From IMG/VR virus record IMGVR_UViG_3300007344_000002: a stretch of DNA of 27,306 nt, one strand, 5' to 3'. How positions within the stretch are numbered: position 1 is the first letter of the stretch; every line of letters begins with the position of its first letter. This document shows positions 187 to 13,914 of this stretch, piece after piece. The notes beneath the pieces were generated by a model. The model had not been told where the DNA came from, did not search any database, and worked only from the letters and a program-made list of their open reading frames with translations. Source of the stretch: an uncultured virus (IMG/VR IMGVR_UViG_3300007344_000002) (lineage: Duplodnaviria > Heunggongvirae > Uroviricota > Caudoviricetes). Both the position numbers and the translations under genes were made by a program.

Positions 187-417
187 ATGCCGGAAAAAAT
201 GACAAAAGAGGAAGCACAAATTAGTCGAGCAATTAGATTGGTCCGTAAAGCAAAGGAAGTTCTTCAAGAAGAAGGTAGAGAAACTCTACCATTGGAAATA
301 GAAGACCCCGATGTTAAGACTAAGAAGCCAAAGGCAGAAAAAGACGATACTAAGATTGAGAATGATACAGGTACTCATTCCGGATATGGTCTTGCTGGAG
401 ATATTAACGACGCTTGA
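187..417 (+). CDS. small charged hypothetical protein (76 aa)
   Basis: ATG at 187 follows GGAGGA (175-180) and the upstream stop at 185, so it is preferred over the ORF-track start at 172. The product is E/K-rich. Confidence 0.75.
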   Translation: MPEKMTKEEAQISRAIRLVRKAKEVLQEEGRETLPLEIEDPDVKTKKPKAEKDDTKIENDTGTHSGYGLAGDINDA

Positions 418-425
418 GTGATTCG

Positions 426-3353
426 ATGGCGACCACTGGCCTAATGTTCGAGAAGGATAAGGCTCCTTTATCTAACGAAATTTTATCTCTCTTCGAGGAA
501 ACTAGAGTCGCTTATCTATCTGCAAAATCCGACCCCAAAGAGTATGGAGGTCGGTGGAGAAATATACTTGAGAAGATTAAAGAATCGTATGATAGCCTTA
601 GTCCTCTTGGTAAAGAACTCAAAGAATATTTAGATGAGCGTCACCTTGAGGCTGATGATACAGGCAGTCCTACAAGTGGCTCTGCTAAAATCGTCTATGA
701 TTCTGTTAAGCAAATGAGATTCGACTCCGAGAATGTCAACGACCCATTCTCTAAGAAAATGAAAGGTAATGTACTAGAATCTCTACTATCGAATGTAGAT
801 GTTTTTATGAAGTTCATTCACTATGCTATTAGAAATGGTGATGATGCCTTATCTTCTAAACTCTATAATGAATTAGAATATCAAGGTGACGAGATAACTG
901 ATGGTTTGGAAGGACTAGACTTGGCATTAGATGATGTTCCTCTTTTTGTTATTGAACACTACGGCGATGATAAAGATAGTAAGAAGGTGAATTTTAAATT
1001 CAAGAATGCGCTAAAGGAACTCAAGAAGGTATTTTTATCCGGACACTCCGAAGAGGACTGGAGTAAATTAGTTGGAGTAGAATTAAAGAAATCAATGAGT
1101 GCTATGATGGCTCAAGAATTAAAATTCAAAGAAAGAATGGAAAACCCTACTATGAGAGTAGAAGAAAAACCCGATGTGACTCAAAATGTAGCAGTAGTTG
1201 AAATGGATGCTGATGTTTCGGGAGATTGTTGCGAGCAGTTAAAACAGGACTACATAGAACTCAAACGAGAAATGTTTGAATCGTTTATTGCTCATCATGG
1301 TTCTTGGGAAAAATTTACACAGGAAACTGGCCGCAGGTATGAAGATACTCCGGAAAATGAATTAAAAGAATTAACGGAATACTTTAACTCACTTGACTGT
1401 GAGGCATTGTATGAATTTATTAGTGACATATTTAGCGAGAATACTAGACCCAAAGAACAAGAAATTCTTGATAGATACGAAAGTTGTAATTCCTTTGGTT
1501 CGGACTTTTCGGATAAATACGCTATGCTTAAATCTAAAAAGTCCGAGGAAGAGAAGGCCATCTCCAACTTCCTAACTCCCAACAAACCAATGTATCGTAT
1601 ATTCGATATTGAAGATATGAATGAATTGATGGGATTCTCCGGAGATTATGTCGTACAAGAAAAGTACGATGGAATGAGAATACAAATTCATAAGATTGAT
1701 GATAAAGTTGAAATCTTTTCATTTAACGGTAAGGACATTACTGAAAAATGTACTGAACAAGTAGCAGAAATGAAAAAGAAATCTTATGGCGACTGTATTC
1801 TAGATGCAGAACTAATTCTATTCGATGGTGATAAAGCCCTACATAGAGCAGATACAGTTGCCCATGTATTCAAAAATAAATACCCCGAAGCAAAACTAAG
1901 AGCGCATGTTTTTGACATAATGCGACACGAAGAAAAGAACTTGATGGATGATGAATTACAGATTAGGATTAACATTCTATTCAATAATTACTCGGCAAAG
2001 TCTTCCGATGCCATCGCATTCCCTTCTAAGAAAGATACTAGAATCGCAGATTCTTTGAAAGACATAGAAGAATATGCTAAGGAAATAATGGAGATGCCTA
2101 CTGCGGAAGGAGTTGTTATCAAAGACTTAACTTCTACTTATTTCGTAGGAACTAAGAAAAATCCTAAGTGGATTAAGTGGAAGAAATTTGTAGATTTAGA
2201 TATGCTAGTTCTAGATAAGAAGTCTACTAAGTCAGGTCTATTCTCTTATTCTTTAGGGGCTGGCCCAGTTCTAGAAGAAGGAAAACACATTGTAGAAATG
2301 AATAACAAACTCTACATGAATGTAGGTAAGGCACTAAATACCAAGATAGATGTTAAGGTTGGAGAAGTTATTAGAGTCAAGGTAGATGAAGTAAAAGAAT
2401 CGGATGGTAGATTTACTCTCTATTCTGCTAAGGTAATCGAAGTTCCAGAGGCCGCTACTCCCGATAAGATTGTGACTTTAGAACTACTATCTAAGGATAC
2501 TAAGCCGTCTTTGAAGTACAAAGTAGAAGCACTAAAAAAAGGAATAACAATTACTGATAACATACATGGTAGTGCTACTTTAATCGCTAAGAGCATGGAT
2601 GGATTTACAATTTACGGATTTAATGAAAATAATCTAATGTCGAAGAACGCTATTGCAGACTTAGATATGTGGAAACAAGAAGCAGAGATGGCTCTAAAAA
2701 CCATTCAAGGAAAATTAAGAGCGTCTATTAAGCAGTTTGTAAAAGGAAAGGGCAAGCCACAGACCATAGGAGACTTGCATAATTTTTTGGCTAGTAATCA
2801 TGCAGGGGATTATGAATCAGTTCTAGAAAGCGATAAGAATAGGCTTGGTTCTTGGATACAAGCCTCGGAAGGAATGTCATATAGTGATGGTAAGATTTCT
2901 GTTGACGATAGTGAAATTCAAAAAGAGTCGGAAAAGGCTGAATTTAAAGTCTATTCTAGAAAGGATGGAAACTTGGACTTCATTGTAAATTACAAAGGAG
3001 AGAACTTATCTTGGTATATTGACCTAGACTCCGACGATGATATATTCTCTTTGTTTGGAAAGGCCAATAAATTCCCTGCTCAAATCTCTACAAATGTTTC
3101 AAAGGAGAAATTGATTGACCTTGGAGATGTAGAAATCGGAGTACAAAGACACGGATACCACGAATATATTCTAAATGGAAATAAGTTTGAAACTAAGATT
3201 CACTTTAGAGTAGTTCCTGTAGAAGGCAAGGATATGTGGTTAGCGTGGACAGGATATGAACAGAAGCCTGTTGATAAGGACACTGATGAAGGTATTTGGA
3301 ATATTTATGAAGACAAGTTTAAGGACTTAAAATACACAAAACAACCGAACTAG
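426..3353 (+). CDS. lig: multidomain ATP-dependent DNA ligase (long N-terminal extension, nucleotidyltransferase and OB domains, C-terminal LigD-phosphoesterase-like domain)
   Basis: Ligase motifs: I VVQEKYDGMRIQIHK (Lys at 1662-1664), III ILDAELILF, IIIa AHVFDIM, IV EGVVIK, V WIKWKK..DMLVL, followed by an OB-like region (GEVIRVKVDEV). Start is either GTG 414 or ATG 426; the latter follows GAGTGA. Confidence 0.9.
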   Translation: MATTGLMFEKDKAPLSNEILSLFEETRVAYLSAKSDPKEYGGRWRNILEKIKESYDSLSPLGKELKEYLDERHLEADDTGSPTSGSAKIVYDSVKQMRFDSENVNDPFSKKMKGNVLESLLSNVDVFMKFIHYAIRNGDDALSSKLYNELEYQGDEITDGLEGLDLALDDVPLFVIEHYGDDKDSKKVNFKFKNALKELKKVFLSGHSEEDWSKLVGVELKKSMSAMMAQELKFKERMENPTMRVEEKPDVTQNVAVVEMDADVSGDCCEQLKQDYIELKREMFESFIAHHGSWEKFTQETGRRYEDTPENELKELTEYFNSLDCEALYEFISDIFSENTRPKEQEILDRYESCNSFGSDFSDKYAMLKSKKSEEEKAISNFLTPNKPMYRIFDIEDMNELMGFSGDYVVQEKYDGMRIQIHKIDDKVEIFSFNGKDITEKCTEQVAEMKKKSYGDCILDAELILFDGDKALHRADTVAHVFKNKYPEAKLRAHVFDIMRHEEKNLMDDELQIRINILFNNYSAKSSDAIAFPSKKDTRIADSLKDIEEYAKEIMEMPTAEGVVIKDLTSTYFVGTKKNPKWIKWKKFVDLDMLVLDKKSTKSGLFSYSLGAGPVLEEGKHIVEMNNKLYMNVGKALNTKIDVKVGEVIRVKVDEVKESDGRFTLYSAKVIEVPEAATPDKIVTLELLSKDTKPSLKYKVEALKKGITITDNIHGSATLIAKSMDGFTIYGFNENNLMSKNAIADLDMWKQEAEMALKTIQGKLRASIKQFVKGKGKPQTIGDLHNFLASNHAGDYESVLESDKNRLGSWIQASEGMSYSDGKISVDDSEIQKESEKAEFKVYSRKDGNLDFIVNYKGENLSWYIDLDSDDDIFSLFGKANKFPAQISTNVSKEKLIDLGDVEIGVQRHGYHEYILNGNKFETKIHFRVVPVEGKDMWLAWTGYEQKPVDKDTDEGIWNIYEDKFKDLKYTKQPN

Positions 3354-3365
3354 TTAAATAGTGTA
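3351..3365 (+). promoter_or_regulatory. possible archaeal TATA-like promoter upstream of the protease/capsid genes
   Basis: TTAAATAG at 3355-3362 lies about 30 nt upstream of ATG 3391, in one of the few intergenic gaps. No SD is seen before ATG 3391, which is compatible with a leaderless transcript. Confidence 0.3.
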
Positions 3366-3390
3366 TTTACAACAAGACGGCTTGAGCATC

Positions 3391-4566
3391 ATGTCTATGA
3401 TTATGTCTGCAATGGAGGAGAATGATTTCTCCATCTTGAAGGCATCGAATGATGATTTAATGATTGGCGGCTATGCTTCTATCGAAATGGTAGATAAGCA
3501 AAACGACTTAATCACTCTAAAGGCCCTAAATGAGGCAGTTAAGAAATTCATGGGACATAATAAGTTCCGCAATGTAATGACTAACCACTCCAATGTTCAA
3601 GTTGGAGAAGTAGTTGAATCTCATAGAGATAGCAATGGAAAACTATGGAAGACCCAAGTAGATGATGTTGGGTTCTTCGTAGTAATTAAATTAAGAGATG
3701 ATATTGAAAAAGCAAAGGAAATAAACCGAGGAATTCGCAAAGGGTCGTTGAGGTCTTTTAGCATAGGTGGGCAAGCACTACAAAAAGTGAAGAAACACCA
3801 TGATGATTTAGGGGAGTATAGTGAGATAAGCAAACTAGAACTTCACGAAGTCACAATATGCGAAAAAGGTATCAACCCCGAAGCGAGGTTCGATATATTA
3901 AAGGAGGACAAAACAATGAACAAATTAGAAAAAGCATTGGCTGAACTAGATACTCTTCTAGAAGAAGTTAATACTCTACGAAAAGAAGAAGAAGAACCGT
4001 CAATGGAGCGAGGCGCACCTCACCCATTGGACGAGAAGATGGAAGATGAAATGATGGATACCGAGTCTATGGAATACATGGATGAAGCAAAGAAGGCCAC
4101 TACTCTCGACGGAAACGATGAGACTAACCTTGGCGGTGCTGGAGAATACATTGAAGATGCCGGAGAACAAGCAAAGAAAGAAGGAATGGTTTCAAAGAAC
4201 TTCACTAATGATGAGTTTAGAACCCTTAACCTAAGTTCAGCAAACATCGAGAAGGCTTACGAGCAATACCGAGCAGAACAACTTGAAAAGATGGGACTCG
4301 AAACTCTAGAAGAAACCTTCGCTAAGAGATTCGCTAAGGAAGAAAGCCACCGAGCAGAAATGGTCGCTAAGGCAGAATACGATGCACAATCGGAAATCGC
4401 ACGACTTAACGCAGAGTTCTCCGAACTCCGTAAGTCACTTACAGAAGAAAAGAACACGATTCGCAAGGCTACAGAAGCCGCAACAACAACTAAGGTTTTC
4501 TCAACAGAAGAGATTGCTGACATGAGTTGGAGCGACATTCACAAAGCCGTTGGCGGAAATATTTGA
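3391..4566 (+). CDS. prohead (maturation) protease, HK97/S78-like, fused to a C-terminal scaffold
   Basis: Protease motifs IGGYAS..VDKQNDLI, MTNHSN..VG (His), LRSFSIGG (Ser) and LELHEVTICEKGINPEARF. An acidic coiled-coil tail follows. The gene is directly upstream of the MCP. Start ATG 3391 preferred over GTG 3361. Confidence 0.9.
   Translation: MSMIMSAMEENDFSILKASNDDLMIGGYASIEMVDKQNDLITLKALNEAVKKFMGHNKFRNVMTNHSNVQVGEVVESHRDSNGKLWKTQVDDVGFFVVIKLRDDIEKAKEINRGIRKGSLRSFSIGGQALQKVKKHHDDLGEYSEISKLELHEVTICEKGINPEARFDILKEDKTMNKLEKALAELDTLLEEVNTLRKEEEEPSMERGAPHPLDEKMEDEMMDTESMEYMDEAKKATTLDGNDETNLGGAGEYIEDAGEQAKKEGMVSKNFTNDEFRTLNLSSANIEKAYEQYRAEQLEKMGLETLEETFAKRFAKEESHRAEMVAKAEYDAQSEIARLNAEFSELRKSLTEEKNTIRKATEAATTTKVFSTEEIADMSWSDIHKAVGGNI
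3916..4566 (+). CDS. scaffolding protein from a nested in-frame internal start (216 aa)
   Basis: AAGGAGG at 3901-3907 precedes an in-frame ATG at 3916, exactly at the end of the protease domain. The product MNKLEKALAELDTLLEEVNTLRK... is helical and acidic. Confidence 0.65.
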   Translation: MNKLEKALAELDTLLEEVNTLRKEEEEPSMERGAPHPLDEKMEDEMMDTESMEYMDEAKKATTLDGNDETNLGGAGEYIEDAGEQAKKEGMVSKNFTNDEFRTLNLSSANIEKAYEQYRAEQLEKMGLETLEETFAKRFAKEESHRAEMVAKAEYDAQSEIARLNAEFSELRKSLTEEKNTIRKATEAATTTKVFSTEEIADMSWSDIHKAVGGNI

Positions 4567-6535: not shown

Positions 6536-6946
6536 TTGGCAACCATCCGTTTAAGCGAGTCTTGTAAGGTTCCAACCTTGAGACTACGAAACGGGGTAGA
6601 GGGTTTTATGGAAGTGACGAAGGCTGAGACTATTACAATCTCGGCCTTCGTTGCTTCACATTACATTGGGGGTAAGAACTGCGTAGTTCAATTTACTTCC
6701 GAGGATAGAGAGGAAATCGAAAAATTACCTAACCGTGAAAAAGAAATCCTATCTAAATACCTTAGAGTCCCCAAAGAAACATTGGCTAATACCTTAGCCC
6801 CACTTCCTCCAAAAACAACAGTTCCGGAGAAATTGAAGGCTACTGCAAAGAAGGCTACCCGAAAGTCTACTAAGAAACCTGCCGCTAAAAAGGCAACTAC
6901 TAAGAAGACTACTACCAAGGCAGAACCCACTACAGAAGAAGAGTGA
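6536..6946 (+). CDS. hypothetical protein with a histone-H1-like Lys/Ala/Thr-rich tail
   Basis: TTG start after GAGGTG. C-terminus KATAKKATRKSTKKPAAKKATTKKTTTKAE. Confidence 0.7.
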   Translation: MATIRLSESCKVPTLRLRNGVEGFMEVTKAETITISAFVASHYIGGKNCVVQFTSEDREEIEKLPNREKEILSKYLRVPKETLANTLAPLPPKTTVPEKLKATAKKATRKSTKKPAAKKATTKKTTTKAEPTTEEE

Positions 6947-6999
6947 TTACACAACCTTCATTAAGAGGGGCTAATTACCAACATCTAAGAAGTGATGTT

Positions 7000-7299
7000 A
7001 TGGCAGATACATGCAGAAGCAGTGGAGTCCTTGGGGCAAGCGCAATAATTTCTAAGACGCAGTGCAGATTGAAAAGCATTCACGCTAACATTGTTATTGC
7101 TAGCAATGCGGCAGTGACCGTTAAAGTGTTTGATGGACAAGATAATAGCGGTACAGAAATTGCTAGAATTCACAATACGACCACAGGACAGTATAATCTA
7201 GAATATGATATGCACGGTGTATTATGCACTAGCGGTATATTTTTGGAAATAGCAGAAGCCGGTTCTTCCACTGCACACATTTCAGTGGAATTTAATTGA
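7000..7299 (+). CDS. small beta-rich putative virion protein (99 aa)
   Basis: ATG 7000 after GAAGTGA is preferred over the ORF-track start at 6943. The sequence alternates short beta-strand-like segments. Confidence 0.65.
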   Translation: MADTCRSSGVLGASAIISKTQCRLKSIHANIVIASNAAVTVKVFDGQDNSGTEIARIHNTTTGQYNLEYDMHGVLCTSGIFLEIAEAGSSTAHISVEFN

Positions 7300-7308
7300 G
7301 GTGGTTAA

Positions 7309-7707
7309 TTGCCAGCATTGAATCACGACACTCGATTGATTATGACTATCCTATTCGTAGGTACAGTTAGTGGAGCGAATGTTTTCTTCTACGCTAAATT
7401 CGGTTTGAACTTTCCATATACCATTCTAATGCACGGCGTATTGTTTGGACTCATTACAGTAGGGTCCGTTATGGTAATGAAGGCACTATTTGACTTGGCT
7501 CTTAATGACAAAATTGAGATGTGGCTTTTGGACAGAAGGATTACTGCTTATTGGCAAAGAATCGCTAAAGATGAACAACAAAGAAAGAAGATGCAAGATT
7601 CTTTGAAGACATTTCAAAACGAAAATCAAACTAATAGAATACCCCAAATTTCTCCGCAATATGAAACTGAGGGAGTTTCAGCCGATTTCTTAGCCACCCT
7701 GCAATGA
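7309..7707 (+). CDS. membrane protein, two TM helices plus C-terminal coiled coil (holin-like architecture)
   Basis: Hydrophobic segments LIMTILFVGTVSGANVFFYA and ILMHGVLFGLITVGSVMVMKALF, then charged WQRIAKDEQQRKKMQDSLK. TTG start after GAGGTGG. Confidence 0.7.
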   Translation: MPALNHDTRLIMTILFVGTVSGANVFFYAKFGLNFPYTILMHGVLFGLITVGSVMVMKALFDLALNDKIEMWLLDRRITAYWQRIAKDEQQRKKMQDSLKTFQNENQTNRIPQISPQYETEGVSADFLATLQ

Positions 7708-7716
7708 GGTGGTTGA

Positions 7717-7947
7717 ATGGTTCTTGGCGACATAATGGGTTTCAGTGACTCCGACTATGCTTATAATCAACAAAGAGCGCATTCTGCTGATTTGTTTTTT
7801 ATTAAAATGAGAGCATGGTTTTGGGGCGGTTGTTCTACTTTATTTTTTTTCTTGGTAGGTAATATAATAGGTGTCGTTTTCGACATTAGTATTATGGGTT
7901 GGCTCATAGATAAGACAGTAAGTTTTTGGGATTATTTATGGCATTGA
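7717..7947 (+). CDS. small membrane protein (76 aa)
   Basis: Hydrophobic segment AWFWGGCSTLFFFLVGNIIGVVFDISIMGWLI and a Trp-rich amphipathic end. SD GAGGTGG. Confidence 0.7.
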   Translation: MVLGDIMGFSDSDYAYNQQRAHSADLFFIKMRAWFWGGCSTLFFFLVGNIIGVVFDISIMGWLIDKTVSFWDYLWH

Positions 7948-7956
7948 GGTATTCAA

Positions 7957-8619
7957 ATGTCTGTTCTAGCCGGTTTTGCTGTAGTTTGTATTGAAGCAAC
8001 AGTGGCATTTTACAAGAGAATTCACGCTATCCAATTTGGAGTCTACGGGGCTACAATGGTAGGTAAGACTACTTTACATCATCAACTTAGAACGAGAGGC
8101 GAAGTACCGGAAATTAGAGATAGAACTGTAGGTAGGCAAAGGGCTTCTAGAAAAACAATTAAGATGGACGGAGATACCCACACTGTTAAGACCGCAGATA
8201 TGGGTGGGGAAGCAATTTATTGGAAGCAGTGGATTGACGATATACGAAGTAGAAATGTCAAATATGTCATTTTTGTAGTAGACCATAGACATTTAGATTC
8301 TGCCGCTAATTTAGACCATCAACTTGCATGGAAGTTTTTAGTTGATGCTATTTGTAGTCAAACTTGGCCCAATGGTAAAAAGAAAAAGAATACCGATTAC
8401 CCCCTAGCCGTTGGTATTTGGGCTAACAAGTATGACATTTGGGGAGATAAATACAAGGAAGATGTGGATATTTCTAAGCATTCAATCTTCGCTCCATTTA
8501 AATATGGGATGCAACAGTTAAACGATAAGGGAATACCAACTTACAAGTATATTATTTCCGCTAAATCTCAGCCGGAAATGGTCTACAAGGGCGTTATTAC
8601 AATGATAAAGGATTACTGA
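7957..8619 (+). CDS. Ras-superfamily (Arf-like) small GTPase
   Basis: G1 GATMVGKTT (8047-8073), G2 RTVG, G3 DMGGE (8197-8211), VIFVVD strand, G4 NKYD (8425-8436), G5 SAK (8557-8565), and an N-terminal hydrophobic helix. Confidence 0.88.
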   Translation: MSVLAGFAVVCIEATVAFYKRIHAIQFGVYGATMVGKTTLHHQLRTRGEVPEIRDRTVGRQRASRKTIKMDGDTHTVKTADMGGEAIYWKQWIDDIRSRNVKYVIFVVDHRHLDSAANLDHQLAWKFLVDAICSQTWPNGKKKKNTDYPLAVGIWANKYDIWGDKYKEDVDISKHSIFAPFKYGMQQLNDKGIPTYKYIISAKSQPEMVYKGVITMIKDY

Positions 8620-8623
8620 TATT

Positions 8624-9163
8624 ATGTGGAAGGATATTTTAAAAGTGGACAGATTCACTAATGAAGGGGGATATAAAGGGGTCTATGATAAACAAACTGA
8701 TGAGGTTTTAATCAACTTAGATAATTTTAATACAGTAGCAAGAGGCTATGACGATATGGAAAGAGTTGTTGAGTTTGCTAATGTAGTGACGCATGAATTA
8801 TCCCACAGAGAATATGCAAAAGAATTAGGCAATAGCATGGATACAGTTCTTAAGGAATTGGACTCTATAGTTAAACAGTATGCAGAAGGTAATGCAACAT
8901 TAGATTCTATTGGTGAAAAACTTAAAATTTTCTATAACTATGCTATTATCAATGAGTCATTTGCATTTGGAAGCGGAAAGGACTACGAAAGATTGAGTCA
9001 TTTAGATGGAACAAAAAGTTCAGTTAGGTCTGTAATGTCTCAGGTTAATAATCACATTAGAAAACTAGTAGGTAAAAAAGACAGGCAGTTGGAAAAAATG
9101 TTGTCTAGGCTTTATGATGAAACCATGAGAGCAATTAGAAAGGTAAGAGATGGTAGCGCATAG
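8624..9163 (+). CDS. zincin-like metallopeptidase with an MWKDILK leader
   Basis: HELSH (HExxH) at 8792-8806, preceded by a G-x-Y...V-x-I-N strand pair. Candidate third ligand in INESFA. The gene looks AT-rich by eye. Confidence 0.7.
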   Translation: MWKDILKVDRFTNEGGYKGVYDKQTDEVLINLDNFNTVARGYDDMERVVEFANVVTHELSHREYAKELGNSMDTVLKELDSIVKQYAEGNATLDSIGEKLKIFYNYAIINESFAFGSGKDYERLSHLDGTKSSVRSVMSQVNNHIRKLVGKKDRQLEKMLSRLYDETMRAIRKVRDGSA

Positions 9164-9207
9164 AGGCGACAGAAACCTATACAAAGAAAAGAAAACGAGG
9201 AATAATT

Positions 9208-9837
9208 ATGTTTCAACAGCCCAACCTAATCGCCAACAATCCTAGTCTTGCTAGTTCGTTCTTGCCTCCTCTAATGAGCGCAAGAGCCGCAGGTCCGGTT
9301 TCCGAATATTCTTTCGTACAAATTAAACCAAAGAAGATGCTGAAAGAGATTACCAAAGTACTCAATGCAGAAAAAAAGAAATTCTTATTCATCAAGTACG
9401 GCTGGAAATTTAATCTAAAAGACCGTTGTGTTGTCTGTGGTGTCCACCATGTTTGGGATAACGGAGATTACATGAGGCCACCTATTCCCCTAAGCCATGT
9501 GACTAAAGGTAGGCCGATGCGAGGTACTTACTGTCCCAAACACGCTACACATCACAGACAACTGGAAATGCTACAACAACAGATACTAGCAGATGAGCAT
9601 GGTCTTGATTTCAAAGCGTTTATTCCAAAGCCTAGAATGCCCCAAGTTTTATCTAAGGGACCACTTACCACACTATCAAAGGCCGATGTTATTTCTCTAG
9701 CGGCGATTGGTTGGGCGATAAGTCCACCCAAAACCGAAGGAGAAGAAAAACCCATTGAAGAATTAAACAGACTCTCCTTAGAAATACGATTGGCAAGCGA
9801 AAGAATGGGCGAAATTATAAAAAAAGGTGAACAATGA
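9208..9837 (+). CDS. putative zinc-binding protein with a C-terminal coiled coil
   Basis: CVVC (9427-9438) and CPKH (9532-9543) pairs, Pro-rich linkers, helical C-terminus. SD GAGG. Confidence 0.65.
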   Translation: MFQQPNLIANNPSLASSFLPPLMSARAAGPVSEYSFVQIKPKKMLKEITKVLNAEKKKFLFIKYGWKFNLKDRCVVCGVHHVWDNGDYMRPPIPLSHVTKGRPMRGTYCPKHATHHRQLEMLQQQILADEHGLDFKAFIPKPRMPQVLSKGPLTTLSKADVISLAAIGWAISPPKTEGEEKPIEELNRLSLEIRLASERMGEIIKKGEQ

Positions 9838-10484
9838 TGGGCGTTTTTGGAACAAGCAATACAGCAGTTATGGGCGCAGTACAAGCGCAGAATGATACTC
9901 AATTTAAGACGGTCAATAATCTTCTGTCTTTACAAGAGAACCATGTGGAAGAGTTCTTTCAATATCATGGTGAACAGTTCTTATCTAGTTTGGAGCAGTT
10001 GATGGAAGATGTAATTGATAGGAGCGTTAGTAAGATGCTCACTAAATTAGAGTTCTATCAAGATTCTACTACTGGAAACATGAAGGTTAGTAGTGATAGT
10101 CTAAGAGAATACGAACAGATTACTCAAGAAAATATTGACTTGGATATGAACGCTATCTTAAATTCTGCCATCAATTCGGAAATTATCAATCAAAGAAAAA
10201 TGGCTAAACAACAATACCTAGAATCACAAGGATTTAGTGGAGCATCTAATCCCGCACAAGGTATGCCTCAACAACCAATTCAACAAGGAACATATGGAGC
10301 AACAGGGCTAGCAATGAACAACGGAAGCGGCTACCCTATTCCTCCTAGTGGACAAGACAACTATGGTAGGCCATATTGGATTGACCCAAGCACAGGACAA
10401 ATGAGTTATGAGCCTCCACAAAGCGGATTACACCTAGCCCAAAAAGCACAGAAATTAGCGGCTTGGGGCAAGTGGCTAATGTGA
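9834..10484 (+). CDS. helical protein with a Gln/Pro-rich linker and a C-terminal WW-like motif
   Basis: Overlaps the upstream stop (ATGA), SD GGTGA. C-terminal IPPSGQDNYGRPYWIDPSTGQMSYEPP followed by an amphipathic end LAAWGKWLM. Confidence 0.7.
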   Translation: MMGVFGTSNTAVMGAVQAQNDTQFKTVNNLLSLQENHVEEFFQYHGEQFLSSLEQLMEDVIDRSVSKMLTKLEFYQDSTTGNMKVSSDSLREYEQITQENIDLDMNAILNSAINSEIINQRKMAKQQYLESQGFSGASNPAQGMPQQPIQQGTYGATGLAMNNGSGYPIPPSGQDNYGRPYWIDPSTGQMSYEPPQSGLHLAQKAQKLAAWGKWLM

Positions 10485-10496
10485 AGGTGATTTACA

Positions 10497-12095
10497 TTGG
10501 TCAATTTCAAACTAAATCGTACAACGACTTACAACTTAGATAAGGATACCTTAGAAAAGGATATTGTAGAATATATTTTTGATGAACACTTATCGAGCGA
10601 ATCTAAAATTTTAGACGATTTAGATTCGCTCGATGGAACAGAAGAAAACTTTCAAGAATTTGTTGATAAATTACAAGCAATAGTAGTTCCTTTAGAACAA
10701 AGAACTATTGCTAGTATTGTCAATGATGAATCGTATAATTTGAAAAACAAATTGAAAGACGAATACAGTGGGGGAGGGGGAGACAAAACTCCAATAATTC
10801 CTAGCCTACTTAATTATTCAATAAAGGATTTAGATGCTCCTAATTTACTGAAAAGAGTTTCCGGCTTTGGTTCTTTTTCCGAGTTTAGAAAGCCTACTAG
10901 TGAAGATATAGACGAGGCAAACATTGCGGCGGAACTATCGCCATTATTTAATCTAGATGAATTATCTGCATTACAAGATAAAGTCTATGTGCGCCTAGGT
11001 AAAGTTCTTTTAGATGCAGTAGACGCTGGATTAGAAGAGGCTAAAGGTAAATTCACAGAAGAGAAATTCTTCAAGGGAGAACAATTCACTTTAGAAATAG
11101 ACTTAGATGAAAAAGCGCAAGTGCTTAGAGAGCAAGGTATTGCAGAAGTTGTTAGACTTGAAACTGATACAGAAAAAGTAAAGGCCATTGCTAGTTTAGA
11201 AGGCAAGGATGAATTAGACAAAGCCGCTAGTGAATTATTTTCTGCTGGAATTAAGTCTATGAAAAATACTGCTGGTGAAACCTTTTCAAGTTTGGATTTG
11301 GATGCAGGAGTTCTTGCTAAAATTATCCTTCTCACATTACCATCTGTTTTAGATTTAGACATTTCTAATAATTTGAAATTGACATTGGATTTTAAAAGTA
11401 AGGGTGCAAGAAAATTGACCGAAGAAAAATCTCACGATTTCATAACAGAAGGAGTGAAGAGATTAGTAAAGCATGTTAAATCTACTGAGCCTAGAAGGGC
11501 TGTAGCCCAATTGAAAAAGAATATTCTTAGTACATTCAAAGAACTATCTCTAGTCAATAAAAAGAGGGAAGATGGTCTTCTATACGATGAAGATTTAAAG
11601 GAAGCAAAAAGATTGTATAAAAAACTAAACTCTTATGATACTGAATGGAAAGACCAACAACGGATTCCAGAGGCTGAAATACTAGCCGAGAAAACTGAAA
11701 CTAAATTAGTTAAAATAGAGAAGTTTATGACTGCTGGATTTACTGATGCCATTAGTAGAGATGTTTTAGGAGCAAAGAATGAAGTTATTATTGAAATAAC
11801 CCATGAATATACTGAATTAAAATTCACACAAATGGCTAATCTAAAAGTAAAAGGTCAAGGGGATGAAAGAGTAGGGAGCGCGACCCCTACAGAAAGACCA
11901 CTAAAAATGAAAGAATCGGAAAGCGAAGAAGAATACGCTGAAAGAATGGCAAGTTATGGCTTGCCTCATCTTCGCTTAATAGGGGATGATTTAGCCGCAC
12001 AACAAATATTTGTCTCGGATTTCATAAGCGAAATACTAGGAAACTTTGATGATTTAGAAGAAGAACTTGCCGAATTAAAAGAGAAGGTGATATAA
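10497..12095 (+). CDS. large acidic alpha-helical hypothetical protein (532 aa)
   Basis: TTG start after AAGGTGA. Long E/D/K/L-rich ORF with no motif I recognise. Confidence 0.75.
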   Translation: MVNFKLNRTTTYNLDKDTLEKDIVEYIFDEHLSSESKILDDLDSLDGTEENFQEFVDKLQAIVVPLEQRTIASIVNDESYNLKNKLKDEYSGGGGDKTPIIPSLLNYSIKDLDAPNLLKRVSGFGSFSEFRKPTSEDIDEANIAAELSPLFNLDELSALQDKVYVRLGKVLLDAVDAGLEEAKGKFTEEKFFKGEQFTLEIDLDEKAQVLREQGIAEVVRLETDTEKVKAIASLEGKDELDKAASELFSAGIKSMKNTAGETFSSLDLDAGVLAKIILLTLPSVLDLDISNNLKLTLDFKSKGARKLTEEKSHDFITEGVKRLVKHVKSTEPRRAVAQLKKNILSTFKELSLVNKKREDGLLYDEDLKEAKRLYKKLNSYDTEWKDQQRIPEAEILAEKTETKLVKIEKFMTAGFTDAISRDVLGAKNEVIIEITHEYTELKFTQMANLKVKGQGDERVGSATPTERPLKMKESESEEEYAERMASYGLPHLRLIGDDLAAQQIFVSDFISEILGNFDDLEEELAELKEKVI

Positions 12096-13399
12096 TGCCA
12101 GTTGCATCCTCCCCCAGTGACTATACCTCGATTAACCCAAACTATGCTACAGGGCAAGGATTCTATACAGATATTGGAGCAGTATCGGATTTACTACAGG
12201 TGACTCCATTTACTTCCGGTACTAATCCATCTGCCGCACAAGTCGGCTCAATCATTAAGAGAATAGAAGGAATGGTTGATGAGAAAATTAACCGTTCTTA
12301 TCGACCTATCATTTGGAAGAATGAGTTCAAGGATTTTGAATTTACTCGCCATCCAATAATGTCTTATTATGGAGGCTATGTAGGATTTATACAACTGCAA
12401 CAGATGAAGATTAGAAAGATTGTAAGTCTAAGAGTTTGGGAAGGAAACGCCTATCGAGAATTGGCTTCTGCTCAAGCCTCGATTACTCTCCTAGAAAACT
12501 TTAGAGATATTCATTCTCTTATTTTCCAACTACCTAATAGTGGGGTTTCTTTTGAACTGTTAGCAGAAAACGATGTTTCCGCTTTAGCAAACGATGAGTT
12601 TTGTACTACCTTCGGAATAAAGACTACCAATAATGAAATTGTTGATTTGATTAACGAAAAGTTTCCATCGAACACCTCCCAATTTACAGGAGCAACTGCT
12701 TCAAAGGAACTATCATCTAGTAATCTCAATGTTTCCGATTTTTTCTTCTCGCAGAAAGACGACCAAGACGGTACTAAAGTCTTAATTTCATCTTTATTAT
12801 CCGGTGATGATGGAGCAGGTTGCACACTAAAGGCTACTATTCAACAGTCCTGTACTACTAGTAATACTAGCACTAGTTTAACTGTAGCCGATTCTAGTAA
12901 ATTAGCAGTAGATATGGAAGTCACAGGAACTAATATTCCTTCTTCTACTACTATTTCTTCTATTGATACTTCAACTACTGTCACTCTTTCTAAAGCCGCT
13001 ACGGGTTCTGCATCAAGCACACTAACCTTTACCACTACCAATGAAATCCCCACAGTTTGTTCTCTTGTAGCCTTTACTGACAAAGAAGATATGAAGCGTT
13101 TGGGCGACTTTTGGATGATGAGCGATGATGGAAGAATCTTCTTTTTGAAGAAGTATCCTTATCATAATAAGAACTCAATCATTGTTTCTTATGTTGCTGG
13201 TGATGGAAGAGTACCTTCTACAGTTCACGAAGCCACTACCAAATTAGTAGCGGCAGAAATTCTACGACATGACGACCAAACAATAATGATTGCTGAAACC
13301 GGAGCAAACATATCAGCGAAGGAAAAGTACGATTTACTTCGTGCAGAAGGCTTGGCTCTTATTGATGGTAAGAAAGACTTAGTGTATATGTTGGATTGA
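12095..13399 (+). CDS. putative head-tail adaptor/connector with inserted domains
   Basis: N-terminal YTDIGAVSDLL...IIKRIEGMVDEKINRSY and C-terminal IIVSYVAGDGRVPSTVHEATTKLVAAEIL resemble SPP1 gp15/HK97 gp6-like adaptors. Position is between head and tail genes. Confidence 0.65.
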   Translation: MPVASSPSDYTSINPNYATGQGFYTDIGAVSDLLQVTPFTSGTNPSAAQVGSIIKRIEGMVDEKINRSYRPIIWKNEFKDFEFTRHPIMSYYGGYVGFIQLQQMKIRKIVSLRVWEGNAYRELASAQASITLLENFRDIHSLIFQLPNSGVSFELLAENDVSALANDEFCTTFGIKTTNNEIVDLINEKFPSNTSQFTGATASKELSSSNLNVSDFFFSQKDDQDGTKVLISSLLSGDDGAGCTLKATIQQSCTTSNTSTSLTVADSSKLAVDMEVTGTNIPSSTTISSIDTSTTVTLSKAATGSASSTLTFTTTNEIPTVCSLVAFTDKEDMKRLGDFWMMSDDGRIFFLKKYPYHNKNSIIVSYVAGDGRVPSTVHEATTKLVAAEILRHDDQTIMIAETGANISAKEKYDLLRAEGLALIDGKKDLVYMLD

Positions 13400-13404
13400 T
13401 TGGT

Positions 13405-13914
13405 ATGTGGAAAAACATATTAAAAAATAACAGTGGTGGTAAAACTCACATTCCTTATCACACTAAAGTAGAATTTATGAATGGTTTGTATCGGGAACTT
13501 TATGATACAATAGAAAGAAAGGAAGGACTTGAGGGTTTTGAGTTCAACAATGGAATGATTTATTTTCCTAATTACATATTGAGTTTTAACCCAAATGTTG
13601 GTCGTCATAATGACGACTTTATACCAAAACCATTTGAAGAAATACAAATAATATTAGATGTAGATTGGTATGATTTGTGGTATAGAGGGTTTGAAGACGA
13701 AATAAATGAAATTGCTGATGGTTTTGGCGAAGAATACAGATTAAAAGCAGAAGACCAAGGCGTTCATCCTGTTTATGAATACAATGCAGGTTCTCACAAT
13801 AATGAAGCCGGTGGTACAATTAGTGTGTTTTCAAAAACCTCTAATTCATTCATTGAGTCTTTAATTAAAAACATTCATAAAAAAATAGAAAGTAAATTTG
13901 ACGGAAGGGATTGA
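13405..13914 (+). CDS. hypothetical protein with an MWKNILK leader (169 aa)
   Basis: ATG 13405 is preferred over TTG 13396. AT-rich gene lying between neck genes; no catalytic motif recognised. Confidence 0.7.
   Translation: MWKNILKNNSGGKTHIPYHTKVEFMNGLYRELYDTIERKEGLEGFEFNNGMIYFPNYILSFNPNVGRHNDDFIPKPFEEIQIILDVDWYDLWYRGFEDEINEIADGFGEEYRLKAEDQGVHPVYEYNAGSHNNEAGGTISVFSKTSNSFIESLIKNIHKKIESKFDGRD

Follow-up and report, generated by a model that had tools for sequence, protein, structure and literature searches.

The stretch of DNA analysed here (the window, 27,306 nucleotides in full) comes from an uncultured virus (IMG/VR record IMGVR_UViG_3300007344_000002), and between its positions 7309 and 10484 lies a block of genes encoding two small membrane proteins (TM1 and TM2), a small GTPase, a cysteine/histidine (Cys/His) protein and a last protein termed o216. 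An earlier note, made from the letters of the window, had singled out this block as a candidate GTPase-controlled membrane module that might serve lysis or egress. The GTPase-centred membrane module is real, and virion release is weighed below against the other roles that it could have. The genes, one of which lies outside the module, are the following:

7309-7707, plus strand: TM1, 132 amino acids, first gene of the cassette
7717-7947, plus strand: TM2, 76 amino acids
7957-8619, plus strand: small GTPase, 220 amino acids
8624-9163, plus strand: HExxH protein, 179 amino acids, a gene in a variable slot and outside the cassette
9208-9837, plus strand: Cys/His protein (o209), 209 amino acids, with C74-V-V-C77 and C109-P-K-H112
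9834-10484, plus strand: o216, 216 amino acids, last gene, overlapping the Cys/His gene by 4 nucleotides

The positions that had been given earlier for these six genes were all borne out, and the CxxC/CxxH protein and the overlapping gene after it were seen as described. The TTG start of TM1 is supported by an ATG at the same site in relatives. Three 9-nucleotide gaps with TGAGGT stop/Shine-Dalgarno junctions were likewise present, at 7297-7311, 7705-7719 and 7945-7959. The same junction stands at 7 of the 23 gene starts of the window, including that of the capsid gene and those of the two genes after it, and TGAGGT was rejected as the mark of a module, being a general style of the genome. As the junctions continue from the capsid gene onward, they chain the block translationally to the head genes and mark no separate module; late, coupled expression of the block would be expected from them.

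Conservation of the block in three virus lineages

Viral contigs were scanned for relatives of the GTPase, and of the 212 obtained the best 80 (70-100% identity) were used; two loci that end within the GTPase gene (L036 and L060) were excluded from the counts of gene order. The TM1, TM2 and GTPase genes stood in order in all 76 loci with room upstream, the GTPase, Cys/His and last genes in all 62 loci with room downstream, and all five in each of the 60 loci with room both upstream and downstream. Co-occurrence and order across relatives had been set beforehand as the check on the block, and the co-occurrence observed is far beyond chance. The gaps in these relatives were typically 8-12 nucleotides between TM1 and TM2, -1 to 10 nucleotides in most cases between TM2 and the GTPase gene, and -8 to 4 nucleotides between the last two genes.

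Median identities were taken over the 69 relatives whose GTPase is less than 80% identical to that of the window. They were 73% for the GTPase, 69% for TM2, 65% for o216, and 60% for both TM1 and the Cys/His protein; the capsid protein gave 74%, the head protease 60%, the 434-amino-acid gene downstream of the cassette 57%, and o118, the gene upstream of it, 46%. Since the values for the cassette proteins are close to those for the capsid protein and the protease, the constraint on the cassette equals that on core head proteins.

Two further lineages share the five-gene order, with a GTPase about 30% identical to that of the window lineage (lineage 1). Lineage 2, comprising 80 loci (L081-L160) reached via the distant GTPase P0135, has a capsid protein 44-46% identical to the window's and includes complete genomes of 101 and 118 kilobases (kb). 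Its order is a two-helix membrane protein of 140-205 amino acids, a small membrane protein of 70-100, a GTPase of about 240, a Cys/His protein of 290-360, a Gln-rich protein of 185-240, and another small membrane protein. All of the length windows were fitted by 57 of the 69 loci with six consecutive open reading frame (ORF) calls, the other 12 having a spurious call of 45-49 amino acids or a last gene of a different length. The Cys/His profile of the window lineage matched the gene directly after the GTPase gene in 62 of the 80 loci. In hhalign comparisons of lineages 1 and 2, in which mismatched control pairs reached at most 10%, the GTPases scored 100%, the Cys/His proteins 97.8% (E 8e-13) and the N-terminal halves of the last proteins 93.9% (E 1.6e-7), while TM1 and its counterpart gave a weak 45% (E 2e-4). 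The sixth lineage-2 gene, which encodes 75-95 amino acids with two to three membrane segments (for instance L134 8196-8429), fitted its length window in 65 of the 69 loci and is without a counterpart in the window lineage.

Lineage 3, found with P0136, is represented by four loci, and all four have the same five-gene order. Its Cys/His counterpart was recognised by a hidden Markov model (E 4e-6), and its last-gene product has an ITQENID motif in common with o216. Alignments of the distant GTPases were too diverse for a wider search for loci: P0133, P0170, P0139 and P0159 yielded no viral loci, and a metagenome scan with P0170 gave matches of 24-35% only.

The surroundings of the cassette differ between the lineages. 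It is flanked by head genes and neck genes in lineage 1, by a gene for a giant protein of 1,587-3,038 amino acids and a helix-turn-helix (HTH) gene in lineage 2, and in lineage 3 it directly follows a viral thermosome gene (PF00118, E 5.5e-133). In the complete lineage-2 genome G002 about 23 kb separate the cassette from the capsid gene downstream, and directly after the head genes comes the counterpart of the 434-amino-acid gene. The earlier description of the block as separating head from neck genes therefore holds for the window lineage but not for lineage 2. Since the inner order stays constant while the surroundings change, the block is a functional unit and moves as one.

The window itself belongs to a magrovirus, one of the tailed viruses that infect Marine Group II (Poseidoniales) archaea. 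This identity follows from the nearest named protein to the GTPase, 'hypothetical protein QKV95_gp088 [Poseidoniales virus YSH_150918]' (P0057, 71% identity), together with a gene for an ATP-dependent DNA ligase domain (PF01068, E 9e-28) at residues 409-590 of the 979-amino-acid ORF 414-3353, directly before the head protease. A ligase embedded in the structural module marks magrovirus groups A and B, according to a passage of Philosof et al. (PMC5434244). The best lineage-2 counterpart of the ligase ORF is one of 2395 amino acids. All large ORFs of the window are on the plus strand, its G+C content is 35-46%, and Pfam and PHROGs searches recognised the head protease, an HK97-type capsid protein, the tail tube, the tape measure and a giant tail-end protein. 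The neighbours named above are:

6943-7299, plus strand: o118, 118 amino acids, conserved upstream neighbour ending 9 nucleotides ahead of TM1
12095-13399, plus strand: 434-amino-acid gene, downstream of the cassette

The o118 gene lies upstream of TM1 in close relatives. It has no Pfam or PHROGs match, and its profile found nothing in G002; it was dropped as a cassette member because it is absent from lineage 2, and is probably a gene of the head module. A 532-amino-acid gene right after the cassette (10497-12095) is highly variable, being detectable in 12 of the 80 close relatives; its identity falls to 23-30% in L009-L012, with the genes on either side retained.

Contigs from marine metatranscriptomes (four runs, relatives 88-95% alike) cover the protease, the capsid and the following head genes; over o118 (7037-7322), TM1 (7381-7696), the GTPase (8375-8525) and the last gene (10013-10459) lie only short pieces of low depth. 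At most, these data indicate that the cassette sequence occurs in RNA libraries, as such contigs cannot rank genes and DNA may be present.

The GTPase and its partner proteins

The GTPase carries a G1 motif at G31-x4-GKTT, a switch-I pair at R56-T57, a G3 motif at D81-M-G-G-E85 and a G4 motif at N157-K-Y-D160. GxxxxGKTT, DxGG and NKxD are invariant in 55 distinct relatives, and across 59 sequences from two lineages the invariant positions are Y30, G31, G36, K37, T38, T39, D81, G84, N157, K158 and D160, together with the Arg-Thr of switch I; 19 distant relatives carry the same G1, G3 and G4 motifs. The residue after DxGG is Glu in lineage 1, Gln, Glu or Asp in lineage 2, and His in the lineage-3 GTPase and its kin. 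DxGG followed by Gln or His is the form found in Arf, G-alpha and Sar1.

A third membrane segment of the block, overlooked in the earlier note, is formed by residues 1-19 of the GTPase (mean Kyte-Doolittle hydropathy 1.87). The best window of 15 amino acids before the P-loop has a mean hydropathy of 2.01 in lineage 1 and 1.35 in lineage 2, and in lineage 3 the N-terminal value is about 1.0-1.1 over a 19-residue window. The lineage-1 helix is fully hydrophobic and anchor-like, not amphipathic. Judged from its motifs, its modelled fold and this helix, the protein is probably an active GTPase at the membrane.

An AlphaFold2 (AF2) model of the GTPase was of middling confidence, with a predicted local distance difference test (pLDDT) score of 64.5, below 50 in the switch regions, and a predicted template modelling (pTM) score of 0.65. 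It consists of an N-terminal helix followed by six strands and five helices, in an order that we take to be that of small GTPases. A Foldseek search of the PDB returned at least 500 chains at E <= 0.001, and the top chains listed were all GTPases, a mix of Rab, Ras, Arl, Rho and Arf at probability 1.0 and 15-21% identity. In a VIA-align comparison with 48,161 chains, in which the GTPase was aligned over 160-177 residues, the following Z scores were obtained:

Asgard RagA-like protein: 15.9
Arf6: 15.2 and 15.1
G-alpha-i: 14.8
SR-beta: 14.7 and 14.7
mimivirus Rab (PDB 5xc5): 14.5
Sar1: 13.9

The Arf/Sar/SR-beta/Rag/G-alpha group holds nine of the ten best ranks, rank 9 being one that we presume to belong there, with Rab and Rho chains within 1-2 Z. 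At the level of sequence, the GTPase falls under every curated Pfam and NCBIfam cut-off, the best scores being 25.1 bits for TIGR00231 (cut-off 42.5), 19.2 for SRPRB (25) and 14.5 for Ras (21.6); SRPRB is its best single Pfam match (E 8e-4, below cut-off). Pfam matches at E <= 0.1 among the 59 members were to MMR_HSR1 (32), Roc (28), Ras (24), SRPRB (21) and Arf (8), and a profile search of PDB sequences gave Ras as the best match (E 0.24). We would class the protein as a very divergent small GTPase, probably nearest to the Arf/Sar/SR-beta branch and in no known family.

The GTPase appears close to virus-only. A profile of the 55 GTPases matched 74 clusters at E <= 0.001 among 1.84 billion representative proteins; these were many fragments and few full-length distant relatives, and four clusters carry the automatic label 'GTPase SAR1 family protein' of the Joint Genome Institute. 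Among 185,579 species genomes there was one match (68% identity), on a 12.2-kb contig (L194) in a bin labelled Maricaulis sp., a bacterium; this is most likely a mis-binned magrovirus contig. A tblastn search of phage GenBank records gave no match, and no fused forms of 455-2000 amino acids were found, which is weak evidence by the search method's own rating.

The viral protein resembles the Arf/Sar1/SR-beta branch in its small-GTPase fold, its G1, G3 and G4 motifs, its membrane-holding N-terminal helix and its DxGG followed by Gln, His or Glu. It differs in being only 10-20% identical and below all curated cut-offs, in scoring nearly as well to Rab, Ras and Rho chains, in the hydrophobic rather than amphipathic nature of its helix in the window lineage, and in being virus-encoded and almost absent from cellular genomes. 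The mimivirus Rab is likewise a small GTPase encoded by a virus and a structural match; it is, however, a clear Rab taken from eukaryotes, whereas the protein studied here falls in no family of cells and is part of a fixed cassette that also encodes membrane proteins.

A closer analogue in terms of gene company is ArvA-ArvB-ArvC (OapABC), a small GTPase that with a Zn-ribbon partner drives vesicle formation in Euryarchaeota, according to a passage of PMC10927574. As described there, a membrane-acting small GTPase stands beside a zinc-binding and another small partner and is linked to them across lineages; the viral cassette differs in adding two membrane proteins. Profiles of OapB (PF09846) and OapC (PF09845) matched none of three magrovirus records (G001-G003) at E <= 1, and both matched the Haloferax volcanii control. 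It could be that the cassette remodels a membrane without lysis, as an Arf-, Sar- or ArvA-like module that makes vesicles, builds a compartment or platform for replication or assembly, or changes the cell surface. ArvA-ArvB-ArvC is the closest working analogue of the cassette, Arf6, SR-beta and Sar1 are among the best structural matches of the GTPase, and its N-terminal helix, hydrophobic in the window lineage, is milder in lineages 2 and 3. Against this stand the missing OapB and OapC and the report, in a passage of PMC10791045, that archaeal tailed viruses lyse their hosts; we consider such a role unlikely.

None of the partner proteins (TM1, TM2, Cys/His protein and o216) has a recognisable family or fold. 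By hydropathy, TM1 has two membrane segments, at residues 10-29 and 37-65, followed by a helical C-terminal tail that is charged (Lys/Arg/Glu-rich). It thus has the outline of a holin, being small with a membrane helix and a charged C-terminal tail, although this outline is loose and common to many unrelated proteins. TM2 has one long hydrophobic stretch, at residues 35-64, with a conserved RAHSAD motif ahead of it and an aromatic C terminus.

The Cys/His protein has a conserved core at residues 40-135, in which C74, G78, C109 and H112 are invariant across the lineages. In the region of the putative metal site, most of lineage 2 has Asp in place of C77; the L082-L090 subgroup lacks R102 and R105, and no arginine is invariant. 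An ArfGAP-type zinc finger, for which all members should retain four zinc ligands and a catalytic arginine, was therefore not found in this protein, and a role as a GTPase-activating protein (GAP) with an arginine finger was rejected for want of an invariant Arg. The AF2 model had a pLDDT of 77 overall and 86-92 over residues 21-130. Fold searches with it gave no match and listed no ArfGAP (Foldseek best E 1.7, VIA-align best Z 4.2), and note that an ArfGAP fold may still escape such searches. The profile of the protein found an unrelated reductase as its best match among PDB sequences (E 0.065), and the ESM Atlas only unnamed clusters (0.87-0.88).

The o216 protein consists of a conserved helical N-terminal half, common to the three lineages, a Gln/Gly-rich linker, a WW-like stretch GRPYWIDPSTGQMSYEPP present in the window lineage only, and a conserved Trp/Lys C-terminal tail, AAWGKWLM. 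Its profile found the WW region of Itch among PDB sequences (residues 171-205, E 0.59). No Pfam WW match was obtained at E <= 0.01, and the first Trp of the WW consensus is missing; the WW likeness is only suggestive. An R-P-P-x-P-L motif in the Cys/His protein is invariant, also in the window lineage only, and it is a guess that the two might touch. The ESM Atlas gave no usable match for o216. The Trp-rich C terminus that the earlier note had called amphipathic is indeed conserved and Trp/Lys-rich, but its helical hydrophobic moment was reached by 566 of 2000 shuffles, and a significant amphipathic moment was rejected.

The variable slot and its tagged genes

Between the GTPase and Cys/His genes lies a variable slot of zero to three extra genes; in some relatives there is such a slot between TM2 and the GTPase gene too. 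In the window it holds the HExxH gene, which the earlier note had taken for a zincin of variable occurrence. The gene is present in 8 of the 62 loci with room downstream (9 of 80 by tblastn), as the note had expected, and because of this variable presence it was rejected as a member of the cassette. HExxH is retained in 7 of 7 homologues, and the sole match of the protein is a weak one to a PHROG of no known function. The HExxH protein begins MWKDILK, and the slot genes, which are mutually unrelated in sequence, all start MW-x-x-I-L-K (for example in L006, L009, L019, L038 and L056). In the best reading, the zincin gene is a tagged and unrelated accessory that occupies a variable slot.

The tag, M-(S)-W-x-x-I-L-K, opens many otherwise unrelated proteins, and its lineage-2 form is W-x-x-L-K. 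It stands in the first 30 residues of 13 of the 140 ORF calls of G004, a complete close relative, and of 7 of the 116 of G002, as against zero to two in later 30-residue windows. Tagged genes lie at 3.1-7.7 kb and 80-87 kb in G004 and at 1-24 kb in G002, and the 3038-amino-acid protein adjoining the lineage-2 cassette is also tagged. In the window the tag is found at 8624-8644, in the HExxH gene, and at 13405-13425, in a second tagged gene. The head protease/scaffold ORF 3361-4566 ends (4417-4566) with ADMSWSDIHKAVGGNI, a stretch resembling the N-terminal tag (SWSDIHK). None of the five cassette proteins bears the tag.

These tags raise the idea of a targeting or translocation receptor, in which an SR-beta-like anchored GTPase and two membrane proteins would take W-x-x-I-L-K-tagged viral proteins to or across the membrane. 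Tagged genes do occur within the cassette slots of the window lineage and directly ahead of the lineage-2 cassette, and SRPRB is the family that Pfam ranks first for the GTPase. We nevertheless regard a receptor as very unlikely, since most tagged genes cluster elsewhere, near the ends of the G004 genome, the similar peptide at the end of the head protease-scaffold protein points to capsid loading instead, and the two tagged proteins of the window have no membrane segments by hydropathy.

Possible roles of the cassette

Two membrane proteins, a tethered GTPase, soluble partners that are always alongside, one of them with a basic aromatic tail, and the chaining to late genes point to a late membrane-bound GTPase switch complex. 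Our favoured reading is that the five genes form one functional cassette for such a complex, made with the late head genes and most likely serving virion release; we give this a probability of roughly 40%. TM1, whose two helices would form a hairpin ahead of the charged tail, would enter the host membrane together with TM2, and the hydrophobic N-terminal helix would hold the GTPase beside them with its G domain in the cytoplasm. The Cys/His and helical proteins, both soluble, would be the partners by which the nucleotide state is read or set. The complex would sit on the cytoplasmic face of the host membrane, produced together with the late (head) genes, and the state of the GTPase would control a membrane change, most likely a controlled breaching or remodelling that releases virions. 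Of this proposal, the membrane topology, the timing, the role in egress and any contacts among the proteins are inferred, whereas the cassette, its conservation, the motifs and fold of the GTPase and the membrane segments are observed.

The earlier note had recognised no endolysin, and no lytic enzyme was found among the 23 ORFs of the window in Pfam and PHROGs scans. No endolysin would be needed in a host without a murein wall, which is what we take the host to be. Archaea in general lack such a wall according to a passage of PMC10791045, where the egress players of archaeal tailed viruses are called 'completely uncharacterized'. The cassette might be this missing egress machine, with a virus-made, anchored GTPase gating holin-like proteins so that the nucleotide state, and not protein build-up, times rupture; this more specific proposal is doubtful.

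Phage holin/antiholin cassettes such as lambda S offer the nearest comparison from lysis. They too consist of small late membrane proteins in a viral cassette; TM1 has the two membrane helices and charged C-terminal tail of what we take to be a class II holin, and the lineage-2 cassette lies just upstream of terminase-side genes. The viral cassette differs in having no endolysin partner, no sequence similarity and a conservation far above that of usual holins, and its three soluble partners, including the GTPase, are without a counterpart in any known lysis cassette.

Several observations weigh against a role in release. No part of the cassette resembles a known lysis, holin or membrane-scission protein in Pfam, PHROGs or NCBIfam. 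Holins usually diverge fast, and the cassette proteins, unlike them, are as conserved as the capsid protein. TM1 and TM2 have competitors as holin-like candidates, since membrane segments also occur in other small ORFs of the complete close relative G004. TM2 has no similarity to its lineage-2 counterpart by hhalign, and its counterparts in the other lineages are positional only. The suggestion that the neighbours act as GAP, guanine-nucleotide exchange factor (GEF) or the like found no support, the Cys/His protein having neither an invariant arginine nor a recognisable fold, and homologues of ArvB and ArvC were found in none of the three virus records. Finally, morphogenesis genes adjoin the cassette in all three lineages (head genes, terminase-side HTH gene, chaperonin), which fits assembly as well.

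One interpretation of this last point is that the cassette encodes a membrane-bound morphogenesis factor, which anchors or starts head (portal or prohead) assembly, or docks the viral chaperonin at the membrane, with the GTPase as a checkpoint. Phage T4 begins its prohead at the inner membrane, where gp40 assists. In every lineage the cassette is surrounded by late morphogenesis genes: it lies between head and neck genes in lineage 1, ahead of HTH and terminase-side genes in lineage 2 and directly behind the thermosome gene in lineage 3. Its conservation matches that of the capsid protein and the protease, and it is translationally coupled to head genes. For the position of the cassette among its neighbours and for its strong conservation, morphogenesis is about as good an account as egress; membrane remodelling, too, fits roughly as well. 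No tailed virus, however, is known to us to use a GTPase in its assembly, the literature searches not having been aimed at this; the cassette can lie 23 kb from the head genes, and its proteins have no similarity to assembly chaperones in Pfam or PHROGs. On balance an assembly role is rather unlikely.

The position of the cassette inside the virion gene cluster of the window lineage could also mean that the membrane proteins and their partners are packaged virion parts which, as ejection or pilot proteins, would make an opening in the host membrane during entry, and the ejection proteins of some phages do carry membrane segments. A nucleotide-dependent switch with an N-terminal membrane anchor would, however, be an odd capsid cargo, the lineage-2 cassette lies outside the virion cluster, and the W-x-x-I-L-K tag is on none of the five proteins; this is most improbable.

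The word GTPase is absent from the full text of four papers on magroviruses and archaeal tailed viruses (PMC5434244, PMC11706807, PMC10160649 and PMC8651126) and from the supplementary text of two of them, in which large annotation tables are probably not covered. Literature searches on small GTPases of archaeal viruses and Caudoviricetes, and on a Poseidoniales virus GTPase, found no paper on such a cassette. In the surface ocean, magroviruses were ranked as the third most abundant virus group, according to a passage in supplementary file 2 of PMC5434244.

The cassette is a core block, conserved like the capsid protein, with a private small GTPase and membrane partners, and as a small set of genes it is open to expression and test. 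It is a concrete candidate for how the tailed viruses of abundant ocean archaea act on, or exit through, the membrane of their host. Were it a machine for release, lysis control of a new kind would be defined by it; GTPase-gated egress would be the first GTPase-controlled lysis system, and the first lysis system identified in any tailed virus whose archaeal host lacks a murein-type wall. Even as a device for assembly or remodelling, the cassette would be without known precedent as a small-GTPase membrane switch in the viruses of prokaryotes.

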